Shown: piece after piece, positions 4,595 through 33,639 of the stretch | Layout of the letters: every line of letters starts with the position of its first letter | Position numbering within the stretch: position 1 is the first letter of the stretch | Source: Chiloscyllium plagiosum | Lineage: Eukaryota | Reading direction: 5' to 3' | DNA: 33,639 nucleotides | NCBI RefSeq assembly: GCF_004010195.1 | Contig: NW_025213497.1 | Coordinates: 1-33,639 of the forward strand | Translations under genes and position numbers: made by a program | The notes under the pieces: generated by a model | Told to the model about the DNA's origin: nothing | The model's database searches: none | What the model saw: the letters and a program-made list of their open reading frames with translations, nothing else

Positions 4595-5591
4595 AATGCT
4601 TGGCATTGGATTGAATGCTCAGAAGCAGCCTCTGATACCAAGCAATGGTACAATGTATGGCTGTCCCAGAACAAGCTGGGGTACAATTCTGTTGACCTCC
4701 ATGGAGAGCGCTGCTTTAACTATGGCGATTCCTCACCCCAGGTTTTGCTCCGAATCTGGGAGGAGGATCTCTGTTCACAAGGAGAACTGCAGGAGCCTGG
4801 ACATCAGGCAGGAAGCTTTGTTTCATCTCGTAATTTCCAAACCGGAAATTTGCAATGACCAAAGCTACATAAATTCAGATATTATTTGAATGGGGGCTGT
4901 GATGTACAATCTTTAAGATTGTGTGGGGACTTCATATCAAATATTAACATTCTTCTGATTGCAACTTGGGAAATGGTGGTTGGATTCCCTGCTGAAAATT
5001 TCTATACTTCAGATTGTCATTATATCAAATCTTGTACAAGTGCGGGCGGGGGTTAGGGTGGTGGGGAGCTGGCAGGGGTAGCAGTTCAATGGATACTCAT
5101 TTCTTCATTGTCATTACAGAGGGCATCCATTCCTGAATACTGGAAGGATTCACTGCCCTCTTGCATAGTTACACAGTGTGGATGTGCCATTCTAGAAGTA
5201 ATCCGAGCTGTGGAGACTCCACAAATGAGTGCAGGAATTTTGTAATCAATGTCCGTGTTCTGTGTCTCTCATTCTTTATTGAACCCGAGTGGTTTTGTGT
5301 TGATGTTGTGGTCTTATGAGTAACTCCAGCCAATCAGAGTAACCTGTAAAGCAGAAGAAATTAATTACTGATTAATCCAAAAATACTGAGTACACATCAT
5401 GTTCCTGGGTGTTATTTGAACCTCATGTGATTCCCTACATTTTTGAAAAGGCAAAATATTTAATTTGACAGTGTTAACTATAATGGTTCGGCCGATATGA
5501 CATACAAACTTTTTTGTACTAAAACCGTCAGGTGCAGAGAATATTTGATCAGTAACTTCATGTCTTTTATCTTTCTTTCTTTCTCTTATAG

Positions 5592-6469
5592 TTAGTATCA
5601 AGGCGATTGTACTCTTGTCTAGGGACAAGTGCGGTCTTTCAAGATGCACCACTCACTATCTGGTTGCGATGGCTGTATCTGATCTCCTGTTCATTATTCC
5701 TGACGTCATACTTATTGAGTTTTCATCCTATTATTATCCCCGGTGTTTCCTGAACATTGCTCCTCTTTGTAGCATAAACGTGGCCCTTATCAACTTTGCA
5801 ATTGATTGGTCTGTCTGGTTCACTGTCGCTTTTTCTTTTGATCGCTTTGTCACCATTTGTTTTCATCAGATGAAACCTCAGTATTGCACAGAGTAAACTG
5901 TAAACAGAGTTCTGGCAACAATTTGTATTTTCTTTTCAATAAAGAACATTCCCAACTATTTTGACTTGAACCTGGAAGGATCATCAACAATGTTCCATGG
6001 TATTATTACACCAGTCACAGTTACTTTAATGAACCTTTGTGGGTGAGTTTTAAATATATTTCATCATTTTTAACACCACTGCTTCCATTCATTTTGATTC
6101 TTTTTCTCAATGTTCTAACGTCAGACACATCACCGAAGCCAATAAGGCACGTAAGGGACTGAGGGGTCAGAAAATAACAGAGAATGACCCAGAGATAGAG
6201 AGCAGAAAGAATGCTGCGACTATACTTTTCTCTATATCTGGCAGCTTCATACTTCTCTGGCTGGTGTATGTTCTATATATGTATGATACCGGTTATTATG
6301 TGGATGATTTTTATCTCTGTCAACAAGTTGTGGATATGCTGCGGAACCTCAGTTGCTGCACCAATTCACTAATTTATGTATAACACAGAAAAAAATTAAA
6401 GCCCAGTTAAATTATGCAGTAAAATATCCAGTAATAAAATTTATTCAATTGGTGAATAATTCCATGTAG
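5592..6469 (+). pseudogene. GPR139/GPR142-like GPCR pseudogene, coding exon 2 (end of TM1 to TM7 and C-tail)
   Basis: Polypyrimidine tract and AG acceptor at 5590-91. Motifs: LSRDKCGLSRCTTHYLVAMAVSDLL (TM2), SVWFTVAFSFDRFVTIC (TM3), KNIPNYF, LTPLLPFILILFLNVLT/VRHI (TM5), DPEIESRK, SISGSFILLW (TM6), LSCCTNSLIYV/TQ (TM7), AVKYP; stop TAG 6467-69. Lesions: TAA 5894-96 and -1 frameshifts at ~5967, ~6120 and ~6380. Confidence 0.92.
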
Positions 6470-6644
6470 CTGCAAATGTGTTGCTGGAAAAGCGCAGCAG
6501 GTCAGGCAGCATCCAAGGAGCAGGAGAATCGACGTTTCGGGCATGAGCATTCTCCTGCTCATTGCATGCTGCCTGACCTGCTGCGCTTTTCCAGCAACAC
6601 ATTTTCAGCTCTGATCTCCAGCATCTGCTGTCCTCACTTTCTCC
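6468..6644. mobile_element. Foldback (inverted-repeat) Penelope-like terminal element
   Basis: Arms 6468-6529 and 6549-6610 are near-perfect reverse complements. The 19-nt spacer reads GCTCATGCCC-GAAACGTCG on the minus strand (3' half of a hammerhead). Unpaired tail to 6644. Confidence 0.75.
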
Positions 6645-7399
6645 TAATAAATCAATATAACTGAGCACCAACATGGGAAGCAGCAGATAATGGAACAAAG
6701 AGTCCACGTGAGGAATGGACCGAAAAGAGAAGGGAGAGCAGCAACATGATAACACTCATGGGCAAGGACAGACCCCATCTGAGGAACAAAATGAAAGAGA
6801 CTGCAGGAGTAAAGCCAGTGCAGATTGCTGTTTGCAAGGACCAACAGTCAGGAGAAAGCTGAACAACACAAATATAACCAGAAGAGGGGTTAGGTATACT
6901 CAAACAAAAAAACAACTATCCGCAGCAATCAGTTCACAGCAAGTGACCCGGATACAATAAAAAGACCTGGAGGAAAGGATCATCGTTCACTGCAGGGTGA
7001 ACAGCAACATCAGGGCCCTGCCCCATATTCCTCATGGAATTCTCTGATCCACACAGCTGAATAAAAGTTTAAAAAAGAGAAGTTTCACCTCCATTTTTTG
7101 ATTACAAATGTACTTTCAGCAAAATTTGTCTGGATCCGTTCAGCTCCCCCGGCCTGATACTGATATTACTCCCTTTCTTTATCCATTATTTTCCACCAAT
7201 CAGCTGCGTGTTGATGGGAGTATCCAAGGCCCAATCAGAGGGCTCGGTAGTAGTTCGGATCTAAATCTCGGGAACGGGATGTGGGAGATGAACCGATGCC
7301 CTCAATACTTCCGTGAAAACGTTTTGTGGCTTTCACAAACACCACTGAGCTCAGTGGGAACGGACTCTGGATAAAACCTGTTTGCTTGTGGCTTGAAAA

Positions 7400-11859: not shown

Positions 11860-12960
11860 TTCATCAAACCGTATTGCCAGTGGGTTACAGAAATGAAGCA
11901 TTACGAATGAGAACATCGAGTAGTTAAAATTGCCGAGAGTTGCATGAACTATCTGTCAGGGGTCATTTCAGAGTAAGAAAAACTCATGCTATAAAATAAA
12001 AACACTTTTATTGAACGGGACTGGACAAGGATGGAGTTGAATGTTGCCTGACATGTCATATATGTAAAGTAATTGGAAGCCTACAGGCAGCAATAAAACC
12101 TGCGGCCTTTAATACCCAATCCTGCATGAGAGGAAACTTTTATAAGAACCTTAGTTGATCGTATAGGTCTCTTACCTCAAACAAAAAGTGGGAATCAGTA
12201 TTTGTTAACAATAATGGATGTGTCAACTAGATTTCCAGAGGCCGTTCCATTACACAATATCACAGTTAAAAGGATTGCATAGGAATTACTCAAATTGTTT
12301 CACTAGATACGGACTACCCACAGAGATACAATCAGATCAACCTTCACAAAAAACTTACTCAAGGAAATAATGTGCAGCTGAGGAGTAAAACAATTCAACT
12401 CTTCTCTTTACCCATGCAGAATCGCAGGGAGTGTTAAAGCGGTGGTATCAGACACTAAATACTGTGTTGAGGGCTTGTAGTCAAGACTATCGAGATGATT
12501 GGGATAAGGGAATTCCGTTTGTGCTTTTTGCGATCAGAGATGCACCAAATGAATCGACCAAATTCAATCCATTTTAATTAATTATGGGGCCTGAAGTGAA
12601 AGGACCATTAAAATTCATTAAGGAGAAATTTGTAAGTCAGAATTCAGAGACCACATATTTGGACTACATGTCAAACTTTAGGAATGATTAAACACATTGG
12701 CTAGACAGCATTTAAAACTATCACCACATATAATGAAACAGGAAGCAGACACGAAATCAAAGACTTCAATTTTCAATTTTGCTACTGGGGATAAGGTGTA
12801 AGCGTTACTTCTAGTGATAGGTGAACCTTAAAAATCAAAGTTTAGTGAACCTTATCAAGTCGAAAGGAAATTGAGTGACGTGATCTACTTTATAGGGACT
12901 CCAGACAGAAGGACATATCAAAGTGTGTTTCATGTGAATGTGCTCAAAAGGTACCTTTGA
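11860..12960 (+). pseudogene. Integrase (HHCC, DDE core, GPY/F-like module), disrupted
   Basis: HELSVRGHFRVRKT...CLTCHIC; KSGNQYLLTIMDVSTRFPEAVPL; RYGLPTEIQSDQ; WDKGIPFVLFAIRD; FSEPYQV...VFHVNVLKRY. Confidence 0.9.
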
Positions 12961-13189
12961 CACGGAAGGGAAACTAAAGGAGAATGTGTTAATGATTACA
13001 ACACAGAGGGAAGAATCATGTTCAGAGGATTCTGAATTGGACATTTCTCAAATTAAATTGGACAAAGAGGAAGTAGTCAAAGATTGGGATAAATTATTGA
13101 GTCACCTTCCCGAGGAAATTCGAAATGACCTGAAAGATTTATTGCGTTCTCATGGGGAGACATGGGGGAATAAGCTGGGAAGTAGTAAC

Positions 13190-14490
13190 CAAATTGTGCA
13201 TGATGTAGATAAAGGAGATGTAGATATGTGCATGATGTAGATATGTAAATGGAGCTGCTCCATTTAATCAACATCCATAACCCATGAAAGTTGGCACAGG
13301 TTTAAAAGGACATTGAACGCATGCTCCAAGATGACATAATCAAAGCAAGTGTGACTGGAGCTCAGCCATAACAATGTTTCCAAAATCAAATGGCACCCAA
13401 TGGTTATGTATGGACTATTGCAAAATCAACGCAGTTACAAAGACTGATGCATATCCAATTCTGAAGTTTGAAGACTGTGTTGAGAAGGTGGTACAATCAT
13501 TTTTTTTTTCTATGTTGGACATGCTCAGAGAATATTGGCAGATATCTTTGCTAGAAAGAGCAAAGGCAGTTTTGGCTTTAGTAGCGCCGAATGGACTGTA
13601 TCAATTTAAAATCATGCCAATTGGCATGAAAAATGTGCCAGCCATGTTTCAGAGACTAACCAATAAGGTCATTGACGGATTACCATACAGTGTTGTTTAT
13701 ATAGAAGACCTGGTGAGTTTTACTCACACATGGAAGGAACATTTACAACATTTTTCAGACTTGTTCAATTGAGTTCAAAAGGCAGGCTTGGTGATAAACC
13801 TGGCTAAATGTAAATTTGCCAAATCCGAAGTCACTTTCCTGGGCCATCTTATTGGAAAAAATGTTCCACGGGAAGCAAAAGCAAAGGCAATTGGGAAGTT
13901 TCCCTTACCATCAATAAAAACAGCAGGACTACGGTTCCTGGGATTGAATGCATTTTATCAAAGGTTTTTGCCACATTTTAGCAGCATGGCTGTTCCACTC
14001 ACCGAATTGCTAAAGGAAGGCAAGAGGTTGCAATGGACAGCGGGCTGTCACAAGGCAGTCGACAGCCTGCAAGCTGTGTTAACCATTGCCCCAGCATTAA
14101 CCAGAGCTAATTATGCAAAGCTTTTCAAGGTGGCTATCGATGTAAGTCTTACGGTTGTCGGTGCTGTGTTCTTGCAGGAAAACAACGAGAAGATGGAAAG
14201 ACCTATCGGGTATTTCTCCAGGAGGTGGGGCATCATCCACAGGAATATTCGATGGTTGAGAAGGAGGCTTTCAGCTGGACATTGGCATTACAACATATCA
14301 GTGTTCATGTTACCGGTAACGGATCTGAGACAATCATATACACTGATCATAGCCCATTGAAGTTTGTGGAGAAAGTTAAGGACAAAAAATCCATACATTT
14401 AGATGGGGTTTGAAGATCAATTTGAAGATTATGCATGTGGCAGGATGAGAAAACGCGATTACCGACACATTGTCAAGACTCTAATAAGAA
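13190..14490 (+). pseudogene. pol: Gypsy-type reverse transcriptase and RNase H, disrupted
   Basis: LCMDYCKINAVTKTDAYPI, MPIGMKNVPAMFQR, VYIEDL (decayed YIDD), NLAKCKF...VTFLGH, FKVAIDVS..VGAVFLQ, YSMVEKEA, IIYTDHSPL. Confidence 0.92.
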
Positions 14491-17389: not shown

Positions 17390-19290
17390 ATGGTCCGGAA
17401 TCAAACCCGAATCAAACGCTTGGAAAGCAACTATGCTCAAACTTCTATAGTAACATTGCTCATTGATGGACCTTTGAGTGTCCATTGGTGAAGCAGGTAA
17501 AGATAGTTAGATCGATGATGTTTCCTGAGGTGTTCTTGCAGAGGTGTCCTGAAGGTGAATTTGCTGACATGAACAATAATAACTGCCTTCCTTCTTGCTT
17601 GTTATTGATGCCACCAGCGCAGAGCTTTCTCTGGAGTCTCATTACAACACTTTGGCTCAGCAGGTAACAAGTTTTCGATATTTACGTTCTCGGACCACAA
17701 ACTTTTCAGTATCCAGTGCCTCCTGTAATTCCGTAATATCAGGGAGAATGAGTTGAAATGGCTGGAGATTGGGATCTGTGAACATGGGAACCTCAGGAGG
17801 AGGCTGAAATGGATCAACTTCTTAGTATTTTTGGTTGAAGATGATTGCAAATGTTTCAGCTTTATCTTTTGAACCAGTGTTCTGGACTCCCCCATAACTG
17901 AGGTTATGGTCCTTGAAGAGCAGCCGTCTCACCCAGTGGTTTAATTGTCCACCATCTCTTATGACTAAATGTGTCTAAGCGGATATCAGCCAAACTTAGA
18001 TGTGATGTAAAATCAGCAATTGCTGGTGGAACACAGCAGGTCTGGCAGCACCAGTGGGGAGAAAGCTGAGTCTCTTTGGTTATGTTGATCGCTTGTCCAT
18101 CATGTGTTCCATGCAAAAGTCGTACTGTTTTGTAGCTTCACTGGGTTGGAACCACATATGTTGGGTTTTCAGTTCTGCTGATGGTATGTCCTGTTGCACT
18201 CTTCATTGAACTCGTCTGAAGGCATTCTACTCATCTACTCACCGAGATGACTTTTCAATGTTGTAATTGTACCAGCTTCCACCATAAAGCCATAGGGTCA
18301 TACAACATGGAAACAGACACTTCGATGCATCCAGTCCAAGCTGAACATATTCCCAAACTAAAATGGTCCCACTGCCAGATCCTGACCCATATTTCTTCAA
18401 ACTCTTCCTATTCATGTATCCATTAAAATGTCCTTGTTCCATGCATGCATCATCTCTTGCTTGAAGGAATTGCCCACCAGGTCCTTTGAAATCTATGCCC
18501 TCTCACTTTAAACCAATGCCACCTCGTTTTGGACTCTTTTACCCTTTGGGACGACCTTGGCTGTTTACCCTATCCATGTCCCTCATACGTTACCAACATC
18601 TATAAATACTTTTTTCAGTCTCAGACCCTCCAGAGTAAAAAAAAAGCCCCAGGCTATTGAACGCCTCCCTGTATCTCAAATCCTCCAGTTAGGTATGTCG
18701 GGAAGATAGTCTATGATTGTCTCTGCAAGGTATAATTCTGATGCAGTAGATGGCCCACTGAACGTCCTGGACACCTCGTCATAAGTTGGTCGATCTGTTC
18801 GAAGTCTGCCCCATTTCACAAAGAGACAGTGCCACACTGCATGATGCAGTGTCGATAAAATGTGGGGTAGGCAGATTGGTGACAATGCCTTTGGAATGTC
18901 CCATCTCAGTCAGCAGGTGGTGCTGCTGAGCCTGCCTTGGTGATGGACGCTGAAGCCTCCCACAGAGTCCATTCTCTCTCCTTTCCACCTTCAATGTAGA
19001 GTTCAAATAAGGAAATTTGAGTAATGCGTTAATTGATAATCAGCAGAATGTTTTTGTGCCCACGTTTAACCTGAGGCTTCATGGGTACAGGAATCAATGC
19101 TGAGCACTTCCATTGTACAATCACCCCCCCTCCCCACTTTGATTGTATCCCACGTGGCTGCTATATCTGCTGACTTTGTCCTGACAGTGCGACAGGACCT
19201 GCACTGAGATGATCATAGTCTTGTCTGGGACATTGTCTGGAAAGTGGGATTCTGGGAGTGTGACTACGTACGATTATTATTGGATTTGCC
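17390..19290 (-). mobile_element. Old CR1/L2-group LINE (second family), endonuclease-to-RT pieces with nested inserts
   Basis: 17800-17960 is homologous to 21830-21990. 19140-19270 resembles an APE endonuclease N-terminus. Nested pieces at ~18010-18070 (Penelope-like) and ~18245-18690 (CR1). Confidence 0.6.
18245..18690 (-). mobile_element. Rearranged CR1 (HER1-like) 3' end
   Basis: HFNGYMNRKSLKKYGSGSG and a 3' UTR matching 28500-28640. Confidence 0.8.
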
Positions 19291-19525: not shown

Positions 19526-20119
19526 ATGTTCTTTGCACTATCATATATAGCAAAAATACAATTGCAAATGCCGGAATCTAAATATAGTCTTGCTGGATCA
19601 CACTGGCACCTCCAGTAAAGAGTGACCAGCTCCTAAATATCTCCTGTCAGATCCCAAACTGTATCTGGTCAGTTTCCCAAATATTTCCGCACATTGACAA
19701 TTTAACCTCATCATTGAACAAGAGGGATGAGTCTGGTTATCGCACCCAGCATCAGATTATTATTTAGCTCAAGTACTTTGAAAATATCCAATTATTCTTT
19801 CCCTTGAATGCAAATATTCCACACCTAATTGTTTTCATAAGAATAATTTAACTATGTTTCCAAATATTCCAGATACGAAGACATATTAAATTGGTTCTAT
19901 CTATCTCACAACTGAGTAATTTAGGATATGAATCTCAGTGTCTGTGTGATGCTATGGATGGAGGCCGTTCCTCTGAAAAACTGACAGATTGTTCCAAACA
20001 GCATATCACTTCAGCTCTTCACAACAGGCTTACCCACACCCACCCAGCTTACACTCATAAAACCTGAAACCCAATGACCACCAAGAGTCATGAATGGGCA
20101 ACATTTTTAATGAATTCTA

Positions 20120-22090
20120 ATTCATTCATGGGCATTGCTGGCTGGGCTAGCATTTATTGCTTATCTCTAGTGGCTGCTGAGAATGTGTTGGTGAGCTGCT
20201 TTCTTGAACTGTAGTTGTCTGTGTGCTGTACATAGACTTACAATAGCGTTATGAAGCGCTGTGAAGCAGAAATACTTACAGAACAGGGATATATTACCAA
20301 ATCAGGATAACGATTGACGTGGAAGGGAATTTGTAGTACGTGATGATCCCATGTATCTGCTGCCAATGTCCTTCAAGATGATTGTGAGTTTAGAAGGTGT
20401 TTTTTGAGGAACTTTGGTGAATTTCTGTAATGCATCTCGTAGTTGGTACATATTGTTGCGACTGAGAGTCAATGGTTGGAATAAGTTGGTTGTGGTGGCC
20501 ATCAAGTGAACTGTTTTATTACGGATAGTGTGAAGCTTCTTGAGTGTTGTTGCAGCCTCACTCATCTTGGCAAATGGGGAGTGTTCCACCACACTCCAGA
20601 CTTGAACCTTGCAATGGTGAACAGATGGAATTCAGGAAGTTAGCTATTCCCTGCAGTATTCCCAGCTTCTGCCCTGCCTTGTCACCCCTGTATTTAAATG
20701 GGCAGTCCAGTTCAGTTTCTGGACAATGCTAATCTCAAGATGTTGATTTTTGAGGAATCATCAACGGCAATCTCAATGAATATCAAAGGATGACTTCTGA
20801 TTTCAGCAGGTCTGGCAGCATTTGTAAGGAGAAAAGAGCGCTGACGTTTCGAGTCTAACTGACCCTTTGTCAAAGTTTTGACAAACGGTCAGTTAAACTC
20901 GAAACGTCAGCTCTTTTCTCTCCTTACAGATGCTGCCAGACCTGCTGAGATTTTCCAGCATTTTCTCTTTTGGTTTCAGATTCCAGCATCCGCATTAGTT
21001 TGCTTTTATCAAAGGAAGATTGTTTGATTCGCTGTTGTTAGAGTTGATCATTGTTTGGCATTTATGTGCCATATATTTAATTTGCCACTTTTCATTCCAA
21101 GCCTGGATATCGTCTAGGTCTCACTGCATTTGGATAAGGAGTATTTGTGTAATTACATATGCTGCTAAACATATGTAATGATTCGCTAATATCCCCATGT
21201 CTGAACCTATGATGGAGGGAAGTCCATTGATGAAATCACTGAAGATGGTCAGGCCTAAGACTCTCCTTTGAGGAACTCCTGCAGAGATGTCCTGCTTCCG
21301 TGACGACTGAGCTAACGGACCACAACTTTCTTCTTTTCTGCCAATGATGACTCCACCCAGTGGAGAGTTTCCCCTGATTTCCATTGCCTCCAGTTTTCCG
21401 CAGGCTGCTTGAAGCCATACCACGCCAAACACAGTCTTGATGTTAAGTACAGTCAGACTCACCCCACGTCTGTATTTCAGCTGTTTTTGGCCATGTTTAG
21501 ACGAAGGCTGGAGTGACGTCAGGAGCTGTGTGGCGTCACTGAGCAGGTTGTTTGTGTGTAGGTGCTGGTTCGTAGCATTTTGATGAAGCTTTTATTCACA
21601 TATTCATGATCGATATCATATTGATGGGGTGGGAATTCACTGGGTTTGCTTTGTCCTGTTATTTATGCACAGCACATACCTGGGCTCATTTCCACCCTCT
21701 CAGGTAAATATCAGTGCTGTAACTCAGCAGAAACTGCTTGTGCAAGGGTGCAACATGTTCTGGAGCAGATGTCATCTGTCCCATTGCTGGGATATTGTCA
21801 CGACCCCAGTCTTTATCCACTAGAATAGGCCAAGATGGATCCACCAGCAGCATTTCTGTCTGAAGAGTATAGTGAATGGGTTTAGCCTTATCTTTGCATT
21901 GATTTAATGGGCTCACCCATTGTTGATTATTGCAGATATATGTAAAGCCTCCTCCTCCAGCAATGAGATGTTTACTTGTTCACTATTATTCATGACTGGA
22001 AGTGACAGGACTGCAGGGCTTAGATCTAATATGTTGATTGCAGAATTCCTTAGTTGTGTCTGTTACATCGTGATCATGCATATGTTGAAT
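20120..22090 (-). mobile_element. CR1/L2-group LINE (second family), 3' ~2 kb
   Basis: RT motif AGVPQRRVLGLTIFSDFINGLPSII and AATTLKKLHTIRNKTVHLM. Its 3' tail (ttcattcatggg...gctagcatttattgc) resembles the SINE tail at 3775-3830. Confidence 0.8.
20800..21006. mobile_element. Palindromic Penelope-like terminal element with a hammerhead motif in each arm
   Basis: Arms ~20800-20875 and 20876-20951 have no spacer. Flanked by TATCAAAGGA at 20781-90 and 21007-16. Confidence 0.8.
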
Positions 22091-31275: not shown

Positions 31276-31687
31276 CAGAGTAAAGTTCTCTCTACACTGT
31301 CCCACGTCAAACACTCCCAGGATAGGGGCAGCACGGGGTCACATACAGAGTAAAGCTCCCTCTACATTGTCCGCATCAAACCCGGTATCTCGCCCCTGCT
31401 GTCCCTGAACTGGGAAGGTTTGATGGGGATGGTGTAGAGAGAGCTTTACTCTGTATCTAACCCTGTGCTGTCCCTGTCCCTGGGAGTGTTTGATGGGGGA
31501 TGGTGTAGAGAGAGCTTTACTCTGTATCGAACCCCGTGCTGTCCCTGTCCTGGGAGTGTTTGATGGGGGGACAGTGTAGAGGGAGCTTTACTCTGTATCG
31601 AACCCCGTGCTGTCCCTGTCCTGGGAGTGTTTGATGTGGGGACAGTGTAGAGGGAGCTTTACTCTGTATCTAACCCCGTGCTGTCCC
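31276..31687. repeat. ~70-bp minisatellite, left block, with orientation switch at ~31385
   Basis: Unit ggagtgtttgatggggacagtgtagagggagctttactctgtatctaaccccgtgctgtccctgtcctg; reverse-complement units at 31276-31381. Confidence 0.95.
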
Positions 31688-32631
31688 NNNNNNNNNNNNN
31701 NNNNNNNNNNNNNNNNNNNNNNNNNNNNNNNNNNNNNNNNNNNNNNNNNNNNNNNNNNNNNNNNNNNNNNNNNNNNNNNNNNNNNNNNNNNNNNNNNNNN
31801 NNNNNNNNNNNNNNNNNNNNNNNNNNNNNNNNNNNNNNNNNNNNNNNNNNNNNNNNNNNNNNNNNNNNNNNNNNNNNNNNNNNNNNNNNNNNNNNNNNNN
31901 NNNNNNNNNNNNNNNNNNNNNNNNNNNNNNNNNNNNNNNNNNNNNNNNNNNNNNNNNNNNNNNNNNNNNNNNNNNNNNNNNNNNNNNNNNNNNNNNNNNN
32001 NNNNNNNNNNNNNNNNNNNNNNNNNNNNNNNNNNNNNNNNNNNNNNNNNNNNNNNNNNNNNNNNNNNNNNNNNNNNNNNNNNNNNNNNNNNNNNNNNNNN
32101 NNNNNNNNNNNNNNNNNNNNNNNNNNNNNNNNNNNNNNNNNNNNNNNNNNNNNNNNNNNNNNNNNNNNNNNNNNNNNNNNNNNNNNNNNNNNNNNNNNNN
32201 NNNNNNNNNNNNNNNNNNNNNNNNNNNNNNNNNNNNNNNNNNNNNNNNNNNNNNNNNNNNNNNNNNNNNNNNNNNNNNNNNNNNNNNNNNNNNNNNNNNN
32301 NNNNNNNNNNNNNNNNNNNNNNNNNNNNNNNNNNNNNNNNNNNNNNNNNNNNNNNNNNNNNNNNNNNNNNNNNNNNNNNNNNNNNNNNNNNNNNNNNNNN
32401 NNNNNNNNNNNNNNNNNNNNNNNNNNNNNNNNNNNNNNNNNNNNNNNNNNNNNNNNNNNNNNNNNNNNNNNNNNNNNNNNNNNNNNNNNNNNNNNNNNNN
32501 NNNNNNNNNNNNNNNNNNNNNNNNNNNNNNNNNNNNNNNNNNNNNNNNNNNNNNNNNNNNNNNNNNNNNNNNNNNNNNNNNNNNNNNNNNNNNNNNNNNN
32601 NNNNNNNNNNNNNNNNNNNNNNNNNNNNNNN
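31688..32631. other. Assembly gap (944 N)
   Basis: Run of N. Confidence 1.
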
Positions 32632-32839
32632 TACGGCGGAGGCGGAGGAATTGGGGATACGGGATGGCATTTTTGCAAGAGATAGGGTTGGAAGAGGTGT
32701 AATCCAGGTAGCTGTGGGAGTCGGTGGGTTTGTAAAAAATGTCAGTGTCAAGTCGGTCGTCATTAATGGAGATGGAGAGGTCCAGGAAGGGGAGGGAGGT
32801 GTCAGAGATGGTCCAGGTAAATTTAAGGTCAGGGTGGAA
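32632..32839 (-). mobile_element. Penelope-like element RT C-terminal fragment
   Basis: Open frame FHPDLKFTWTISDTSLPFLDLSISINDDRLDTDIFYKPTDSHSYLDYTSSNPISCKNAIPYPQFLRLRR. Confidence 0.9.
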
Positions 32840-33568
32840 GTGTTTGATGGGGACAGTGTAGAGAGAGCTTTACTCTGTATCTAACCCCGTGCTGTCCCTG
32901 TCCTGGGAGTGTTTGATGGGGGGACAGTGTAAAGGGAACTTTACTCTGTATCTAACCCCGTGTTGTGTGTGTCCTGGGAGTGTTTGATGGGGGGACAGTG
33001 TAGAGTTGCTTTACTCTGTATCTAACCCCGTGTTATGTGTGTCCTCGGAGTGTTTGATGGGGGGACAGTGTAGAGGGAGCTTTACTCTGTATCTAACCCC
33101 ATGCTGTCCCTGTCCTGGGAGTGTTTGAAGGGGACAGTGTAAAGGGAACTTTACTCTGTATCTAACCCCGTGCTGTCCTGGTCCTGGGAGTGTTTGATGG
33201 GGGGACAGTGTAGAGGGAGCTTTACTCTGTATCTAACCCCGTGTTGTGTGTGTCCTGGGAGTGTTTGATGGGGGGACAGTGTAGAGGGAGCTTTACTCTG
33301 TATCTAACCCCGTGCTGTCCCTGTCCTGGGAGTGTTTGATGGGGGCACAGTGTAGAGGAAGCTTTACTCTGTATCGAACCCCGTGTTGTGTGTGTCCTGG
33401 GAGTGTTTGATGGGGGGGCGGACTGTGTAGAGGAAGCTTTACTCTGCATCTAACCCCGTGCTGTCCCTGTCCTGGGAGTGTTTGATGGGGACAGTGTAGA
33501 GGGAGCTTTACTCTGTATCTAACCCCGTGTTGTGTGTGTCCTGGGAGTGTTTGATGGGGGGACAGTGA
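32839..33568. repeat. ~70-bp minisatellite, right block (about 10.5 units)
   Basis: Same unit as the left block. Confidence 0.97.
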
Positions 33569-33639
33569 CGTGAGTGCTTTATTTTCAGTTCAAAAGAGTC
33601 GAGGGAGATTTCATCTGTTTAAAGGAGTAGAGTAAGCTT

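Follow-up and report, generated by a model that had tools for sequence, protein, structure and literature searches.

The window, by which we mean the whole stretch of 33,639 nt of Chiloscyllium plagiosum DNA analysed here, contains a decayed LINE whose reverse-transcriptase region is split by a short palindromic insertion. Coordinates are given in Table 1. The LINE is recognized by its reading frame and by flanks present in many copies: its translation has SNNLPLI at the right target-site duplication and RSHPLI at the left one, and it continues across one copy of the duplication. Pfam has no match in this region at E ≤ 0.01; by its motifs, it is presumably of the CR1/L2 type. Elsewhere in the window there is a broken single-exon receptor gene of the rhodopsin family (GPCR) at 5549–6383 on the plus strand, with Pfam 7tm_1 matches, which we take to be GPR139-like, and a decayed Gypsy-type pol fragment at 12938–14413, also on the plus strand, with RVT_1 and RT_RNaseH matches. 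An array of 71-bp tandem repeats is found at 31301–31690 and 32778–33607, with an inverted unit at 31301–31381. It holds an open frame on the minus strand (32632–32868), next to an assembly gap, which presumably resembles the C-terminal RT region of a Penelope-like element (PLE) of the Neptune type. This frame has no Pfam or Atlas match and shows no link to the element.

Public sequence data were placed on a 451-bp stretch which includes the flanks, using 4 of the 24 runs listed. The contigs placed there, flanks included, number 28,293 in organism A, 23,386 in organism B and 2,787 in organism C, three related organisms; 595 of 12,955,460 raw RNA records were also placed. The insertion has 204 bases and is delimited by a target-site duplication, the two copies of which are identical in 19 of 23 columns: as high a score was reached by 1 of 5000 pairs drawn at random from the window. 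Further copies of the host LINE match the left flank as far as 20793 and the right flank from 21007 onwards, and in a contig free of the insert 20782 is joined directly to 21018. Since the LINE copies, the insert-free contig and the duplication set its edges, we treat 20803–21006 as a single event. A preliminary description of this DNA had placed the element at 20800–21006: its right edge stands, while the left edge is moved to 20803 by the duplication. In all four runs the depth of the family drops to flank level past about 21010. In organism B, one contig passes from the left flank into the left arm, with 7 differences and 3 gaps; as it spans the joint between flank and arm, the insertion is probably older than the divergence of organisms A and B.

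The palindrome is spacerless, as had been described. Its arms (20800–20874 and 20877–20951) have 75 nt each, are 91% complementary and are separated by 2 nt. The corresponding RNA hairpin has a predicted energy of −117.9 kcal/mol (z = −21), and none of 200 shuffled sequences was as stable. Within the limits set by the duplication, the insertion begins with an inverted arm of 72 nt, followed by a direct arm and, on the right side alone, by an extension of 58 nt, which is homologous to the tails of the window copies at 233–360 and 6549–6643.

Table 1. Features of the insertion, of its host LINE and of related copies in the window
Feature	Position	Strand	Remarks
Sister-subfamily copy	233–360	−	Canonical CUGAUGA core 357–351; decayed stem II; CpG-decayed cleavage region
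Second head-to-head palindrome, sister subfamily	6477–6645		125-nt self-inverted part and 44-nt tail
Family relative	18010–18074		Profile comparison within the window
Possible family relative	19559–19634		Perhaps
Decayed host LINE reverse-transcriptase region, split by the insertion	20300–21600	−	Reading and multi-copy flanks
Target-site duplication, left copy	20781–20802	.	22 bp, ends GATT
Left arm: element end, inverted and shorter	20803–20874	−	Mirror of 20877–20948
Minimal type I hammerhead motif, minus	20839–20877	−	Core 20873–20867; predicted cut after C 20843
Palindrome centre	20874–20877	.	AGTT in this copy; family AGCT, self-complementary
Minimal type I hammerhead motif, plus	20874–20912	+	Core 20878–20884; GAAA 20901–20904; predicted cut 20908/20909
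Right arm: element end in direct orientation	20877–20948	+	Inverted-repeat analysis
58-nt PLE-type tail, right side only	20949–21006	+	One-sided extension
Target-site duplication, right copy	21007–21029	.	23 bp

Each strand carries a minimal hammerhead motif, and the readings of both arms in the preliminary description are exact to the letter. On either strand we find the core UUGACAA, an unpaired A, a stem II region of 5 bp, GAAA and CGUC. The core departs from CUGANGA at positions 3 and 8 only. The Watson-Crick pair 3-8, GAAA and the UH cleavage triplet (GUC) are present on both arms, and so is the palindromic ACGU at 15.2-16.2, without loop III. The central AG(C/U)U was thought to be the 5' strand of stem I, which is borne out for both motifs: it pairs 4/4 in the plus arm and would be AGCU/AGCU in the family. 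The copied unit appears to have its 5' boundary at this central tetramer. The two motifs are damaged in different places. In the minus arm stem II has all five pairs and stem I just two of four; in the plus arm stem I has four of four pairs (one of them G-U) and stem II three of five, with loss of the loop-closing pair and of G10.1-C11.1. The latter pair, together with the unpaired base after A9, is kept in both the minus arm and the family state and broken in the plus arm. A descriptor for minimal hammerheads with C3-G8 or U3-A8 and at least four stem II pairs has one match in the window, the minus arm; the plus arm fails. Any match at all appeared in 1 of 100 shuffled windows, by an approximate shuffle of dinucleotide tiles. 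An Rfam scan of the window gave no hammerhead family at E ≤ 1 and some miRNA-hairpin matches below threshold; such a miss is expected if the hammerhead models need stem III. One of these matches, mir-3202, was dismissed as a generic hairpin (38 bits, with a gathering score of 90). Two sites which resemble splice acceptors lie on the plus strand downstream of the cleavage site (20909–20935 and 20959–20979), with an 83% pyrimidine tract and CAG; an ATG follows directly after the first one. PLE terminal repeats are known to hold introns.

The family to which the insertion belongs is very abundant in the three related organisms. At its centre the summed depth is some 2,000-fold that of the locus-specific contigs, a depth which is no copy number. 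The most frequent letters allow us to describe a family state. At 20876, where this copy has T, the family has C (15 of 16 RNA reads, and 96% of the summed contig depth in both DNA runs). At 20886 and 20896 it has G (33 of 36 and 39 of 41 reads, respectively), and at 20839 A, where this copy has C. The family state has a perfect AGCT centre, AGCU/AGCU in stem I and five pairs in stem II. The CpG of stem III (15.2-16.2) is changed by C>T or G>A in 12–47% of the contig depth, as is expected under neutral decay. The motif in its family state has all four traits published for minimal hammerheads: the unpaired base after A9, G10.1-C11.1, a short stem I and the palindromic 15.2-16.2.

Other members of the family are found in the same window. 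The copy at 233–360, judged by its core, is a natural C3-G8 counterpart next to the U3-A8 insertion. The palindrome at 6477–6645 has arm and tail lengths of its own; its centre is gone, both hammerhead cores included, as if the tip of a hairpin had been deleted. A significant target-site duplication was sought at 6477–6645 and at 232–358 and was absent from both (82 of 5000 null pairs each). Scans by pattern for copies of the family gave nothing in viral contigs, metagenome contigs or GTDB genomes. A shorter pattern gave matches at 15 metagenome loci, which we attribute to chance in all 15 cases, as they have no family context. A search of spurious ORFs for core positions 3 and 8 gave three matches: one is a family copy (P0003), while the other two are unrelated repetitive proteins and were set aside. 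A follow-up search returned only P0003 itself.

The preliminary description saw twin hammerhead ribozymes, with a stem III typical of those which cleave as dimers. In its strong form the locus would yield two working ribozymes, from convergent or bidirectional transcripts, which cleave as a dimer, and we consider this very improbable. Both cores are intact, the ACGU of stem III is palindromic and the minus arm has its full stem II, all of which would suit a dimer; however, the motifs lie on opposite strands. The usual dimer is impossible in cis because one RNA holds one sense motif plus its antisense. Both motifs carry private damage, which affects G10.1 in the plus arm and stem I in the minus arm. 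In a read-through RNA the hammerhead fold is predicted to cost 50 kcal/mol (plus strand) or 45 kcal/mol (minus strand) with respect to the long hairpin. Even isolated arms should favour an inactive fold, in which the core is paired with GUCAG: the predicted energies are −5.6 vs +1.3 and −9.0 vs −4.5 kcal/mol. Among the 595 RNA reads, one is at least 99% alike to the locus, and none of them contributes to a pile-up of read ends, although they come from a fragmented polyA single-cell library and are weak evidence. In one run (X21) the reads over the core, at 20872–20903, lean about 3:1 towards one strand (depth 22–32 vs 7–12), and those downstream are even. The locus is most likely inert and neither motif is likely to cut. 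The twin ribozymes are probably a by-product of insertion and no dimer device.

A different possibility is that the palindrome itself is the mobile unit: a MITE-like non-autonomous derivative of a PLE, transcribed from either strand, amplified as a whole and forming a hammerhead both ways. In its favour, organisms A and B have several distinct contigs across one and the same centre, and the RNA reads of the family are nearly even by strand at their peak (277 vs 279). Nevertheless we find it improbable. A full-length RNA would hide both motifs, given the 45–50 kcal/mol predicted above. The truncation points of the right arm differ among copies, and the left end is about 20 nt shorter here than the equivalent end in the copy at 6477–6645. 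The joints found in other copies are informative in this respect: 9 of the 23 distinct joints listed leave the inverted arm at 20874–20876 (AGCT), and they rejoin the direct arm at varied points, from 20926 to 20974. This set of 23, from tables with 132 and 42 further rows, is biased by the reference, since its left arm itself ends at 20875. In the five such joints with known spacer letters all spacers start with C, with nothing in common beyond CT. At least five contigs, 88–93% alike, span the identical centre, as would also fit the spread of a palindrome already formed. The joints suggest that the 5' boundary is fixed, at the strand of stem I rather than at the cleavage site, and that junctions would be made anew in each insertion. 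The term non-autonomous, which had been applied to the element, is not supported: an autonomous element may just as well have left this piece, truncated at the 5' end.

We conclude, with a probability of about 80%, that the insertion is an old, worn Penelope-like footprint which consists of two head-to-head copies of a ribozyme-bearing end: a single product, dead on arrival, of an endonuclease-bearing PLE from an abundant U3-A8 subfamily. The Penelope-type origin put forward in the preliminary description is in agreement with the layout in PMC8557442 and PMC3846280, as far as the accessible parts of these papers go. By layout and motif, the subfamily would belong to the PLEs, whose parent elements carry an ORF with a telomerase-like RT and GIY-YIG; no such ORF is linked to the subfamily, which counts against this reading. 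Starting from the observed boundaries, duplication, one-sided tail, abundance and private decay, we infer the following copying steps. The PLE endonuclease would cut the two target strands at points some 22 bp from each other. Extension of both 3' ends, or of a single cDNA which folds back, would follow on the same short template, and two start points 58 nt apart would give the tail. Copying would halt at the hammerhead's front edge; the self-complementary AGCT would then join the antisense strands head to head, leaving a spacerless palindrome. A hammerhead motif on each strand would be a by-product of this joining. Twin priming and the fold-back of a single cDNA give the same product and are indistinguishable here. 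In the parent RNA the motif is probably weak, like other minimal hammerheads of PLEs, and would need a second sense copy or the protein of the element.

The U3-A8 pair was also presented as a covariation which argues for selection on catalysis. U3-A8 is tolerated biochemically in the hammerhead core. It is seen in both arms and in P0003, an independent copy (F-D-K in the diagnostic frame), and C3-G8 in the copy at 233–360; mixed states of positions 3 and 8 are absent among these few copies. The two arms count once, because both were copied from one template. On these copies the covariation is one difference between subfamilies, half of which is a CpG transition, and the argument for selection is not supported. 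U3-A8 looks fixed in the subfamily: among the variant rows listed (40 of 129) none is at position 3 or 8, and neighbouring private changes are present. U3 and A8 also complete a 5-bp inverted repeat around A6 (CTTTG-A-CAAAG), which is 5/5 in the minus arm.

The change might have appeared without any catalytic selection: G8A by deamination of C7pG8 and C3U by drift or by correction toward the inverted repeat, the pair being spread afterwards to high copy number by a source which does not depend on the ribozyme. With C at N7, positions 7-8 of an ancestor with G8 are a CpG, and the family shows strong CpG decay; the inverted repeat around A6 would be the product of the correction. Work on other PLEs, in the parts accessible, is also compatible with this: hammerhead mutants left insertion in vitro unaffected and RNA-seq of Anolis had no reads ending at the cut site (PMC11167929), while Naiad PLEs have spread without canonical hammerheads (PMC8557442). 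Several points weigh against it. The same double change is present in PLEs of Schistosoma, with about 1,300 matches (PMC4209133, accessible part), probably by an independent origin. In the family state the rest of the core and the two stems are undamaged, and positions 3 and 8 are missing from the variant rows mentioned above. From the sequence, one template switch should give U3 with C4 or A8 with G9, never U3 with A8. We regard an origin without selection as rather unlikely, and hold it somewhat more likely than not that the hammerhead of the parent element was under selection for catalysis. Matches for G8A and C3U in PMC7151607 were rejected: they are substrings of the core consensus and carry no mutant data.

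A more tentative idea is that the AGCU strand of stem I does double duty: it would close the ribozyme and also mark the template's 5' end at which two target-primed cDNAs anneal, in a subfamily selected for catalysis and with thousands of copies. If this were true, the architecture of the ribozyme would dictate exact, spacerless palindromes in these genomes. This copy is of little import in itself; the family is a large natural data set on PLE biology. It bears on whether minimal hammerheads face catalytic selection, with C3-G8 sisters next to a U3-A8 subfamily within a single genome, and on the formation of head-to-head copies, with a sharp junction at a self-complementary tetramer just before the ribozyme.

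We may now compare the insertion with known systems, on the basis of the accessible portions of the works cited. Minimal type I hammerheads were described in the PLE repeats of metazoans by Cervera and de la Pena (2014, PMC4209133), who include the U3-A8 variant in the Cercyon family of Schistosoma mansoni, the one with about 1,300 matches; the pair is a known natural variant, in line with the tolerated covariant of the preliminary description. The motifs studied here share with them the type I topology, the lack of a real stem III, the unpaired base after A9, G10.1-C11.1, the U3-A8 core and a short stem I, which has 4–5 bp there. They differ in stem II, with 5 bp here and 7–8 there. Most of the published motifs are likewise solo ones from truncated PLEs, and pairs on opposite strands occur there too, 100–700 bp apart; here the two motifs share one central tetramer. 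The host is a vertebrate here, of which there is no mention in the accessible text of that paper or in two searched supplements. Our literature search gave no report of a U3-A8 PLE hammerhead in chondrichthyans, although the motif lists in supplements may include such cases.

The animal non-LTR retrozymes (bioRxiv 10.64898/2026.07.22.740005) are also non-coding, related to PLEs and provided with type I hammerheads, and they are reported in the one chondrichthyan sampled. However, they are head-to-tail tandems in which one strand bears two or more motifs, and the insertion is one head-to-head pair. No same-strand tandem of the unit was found among the 20 largest of the 32 direct-repeat families listed, nor in a profile scan of the window. 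With one motif per strand, the insertion falls outside the retrozymes.

The closest likeness is with insertions of endonuclease-bearing PLEs, which have an inverted, truncated copy, a one-sided tail, a target-site duplication and junction palindromes, the latter read as self-priming (Arkhipova et al. 2013, PMC3846280; Craig et al. 2021, PMC8557442). Here, too, a head-to-head inverted copy is shorter than its direct partner, with a tail on one side, a palindrome at the junction and a target-site duplication. It differs from the published insertions by having no ORF between the repeats. The 58-nt tail and the 22/23-bp duplication also exceed the published 30–40 nt and the 8–10 bp of rotifer PLEs, which counts against our reading of the insertion. 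Poseidon of Anolis carolinensis (Frangieh et al. 2024, PMC11167929) has a terminal repeat with a hammerhead too. Its purified protein cuts and extends both target strands, and two internal starts define the tail; it prefers ATT, and the left duplication here ends in GATT. Poseidon has features of its own, namely a canonical C3-G8 core, cleavage assisted by protein and a known ORF, whereas the element described here is known from its sequence. The ribozyme type, the U3-A8 core and the mirror layout of the insertion are all already described for PLEs.
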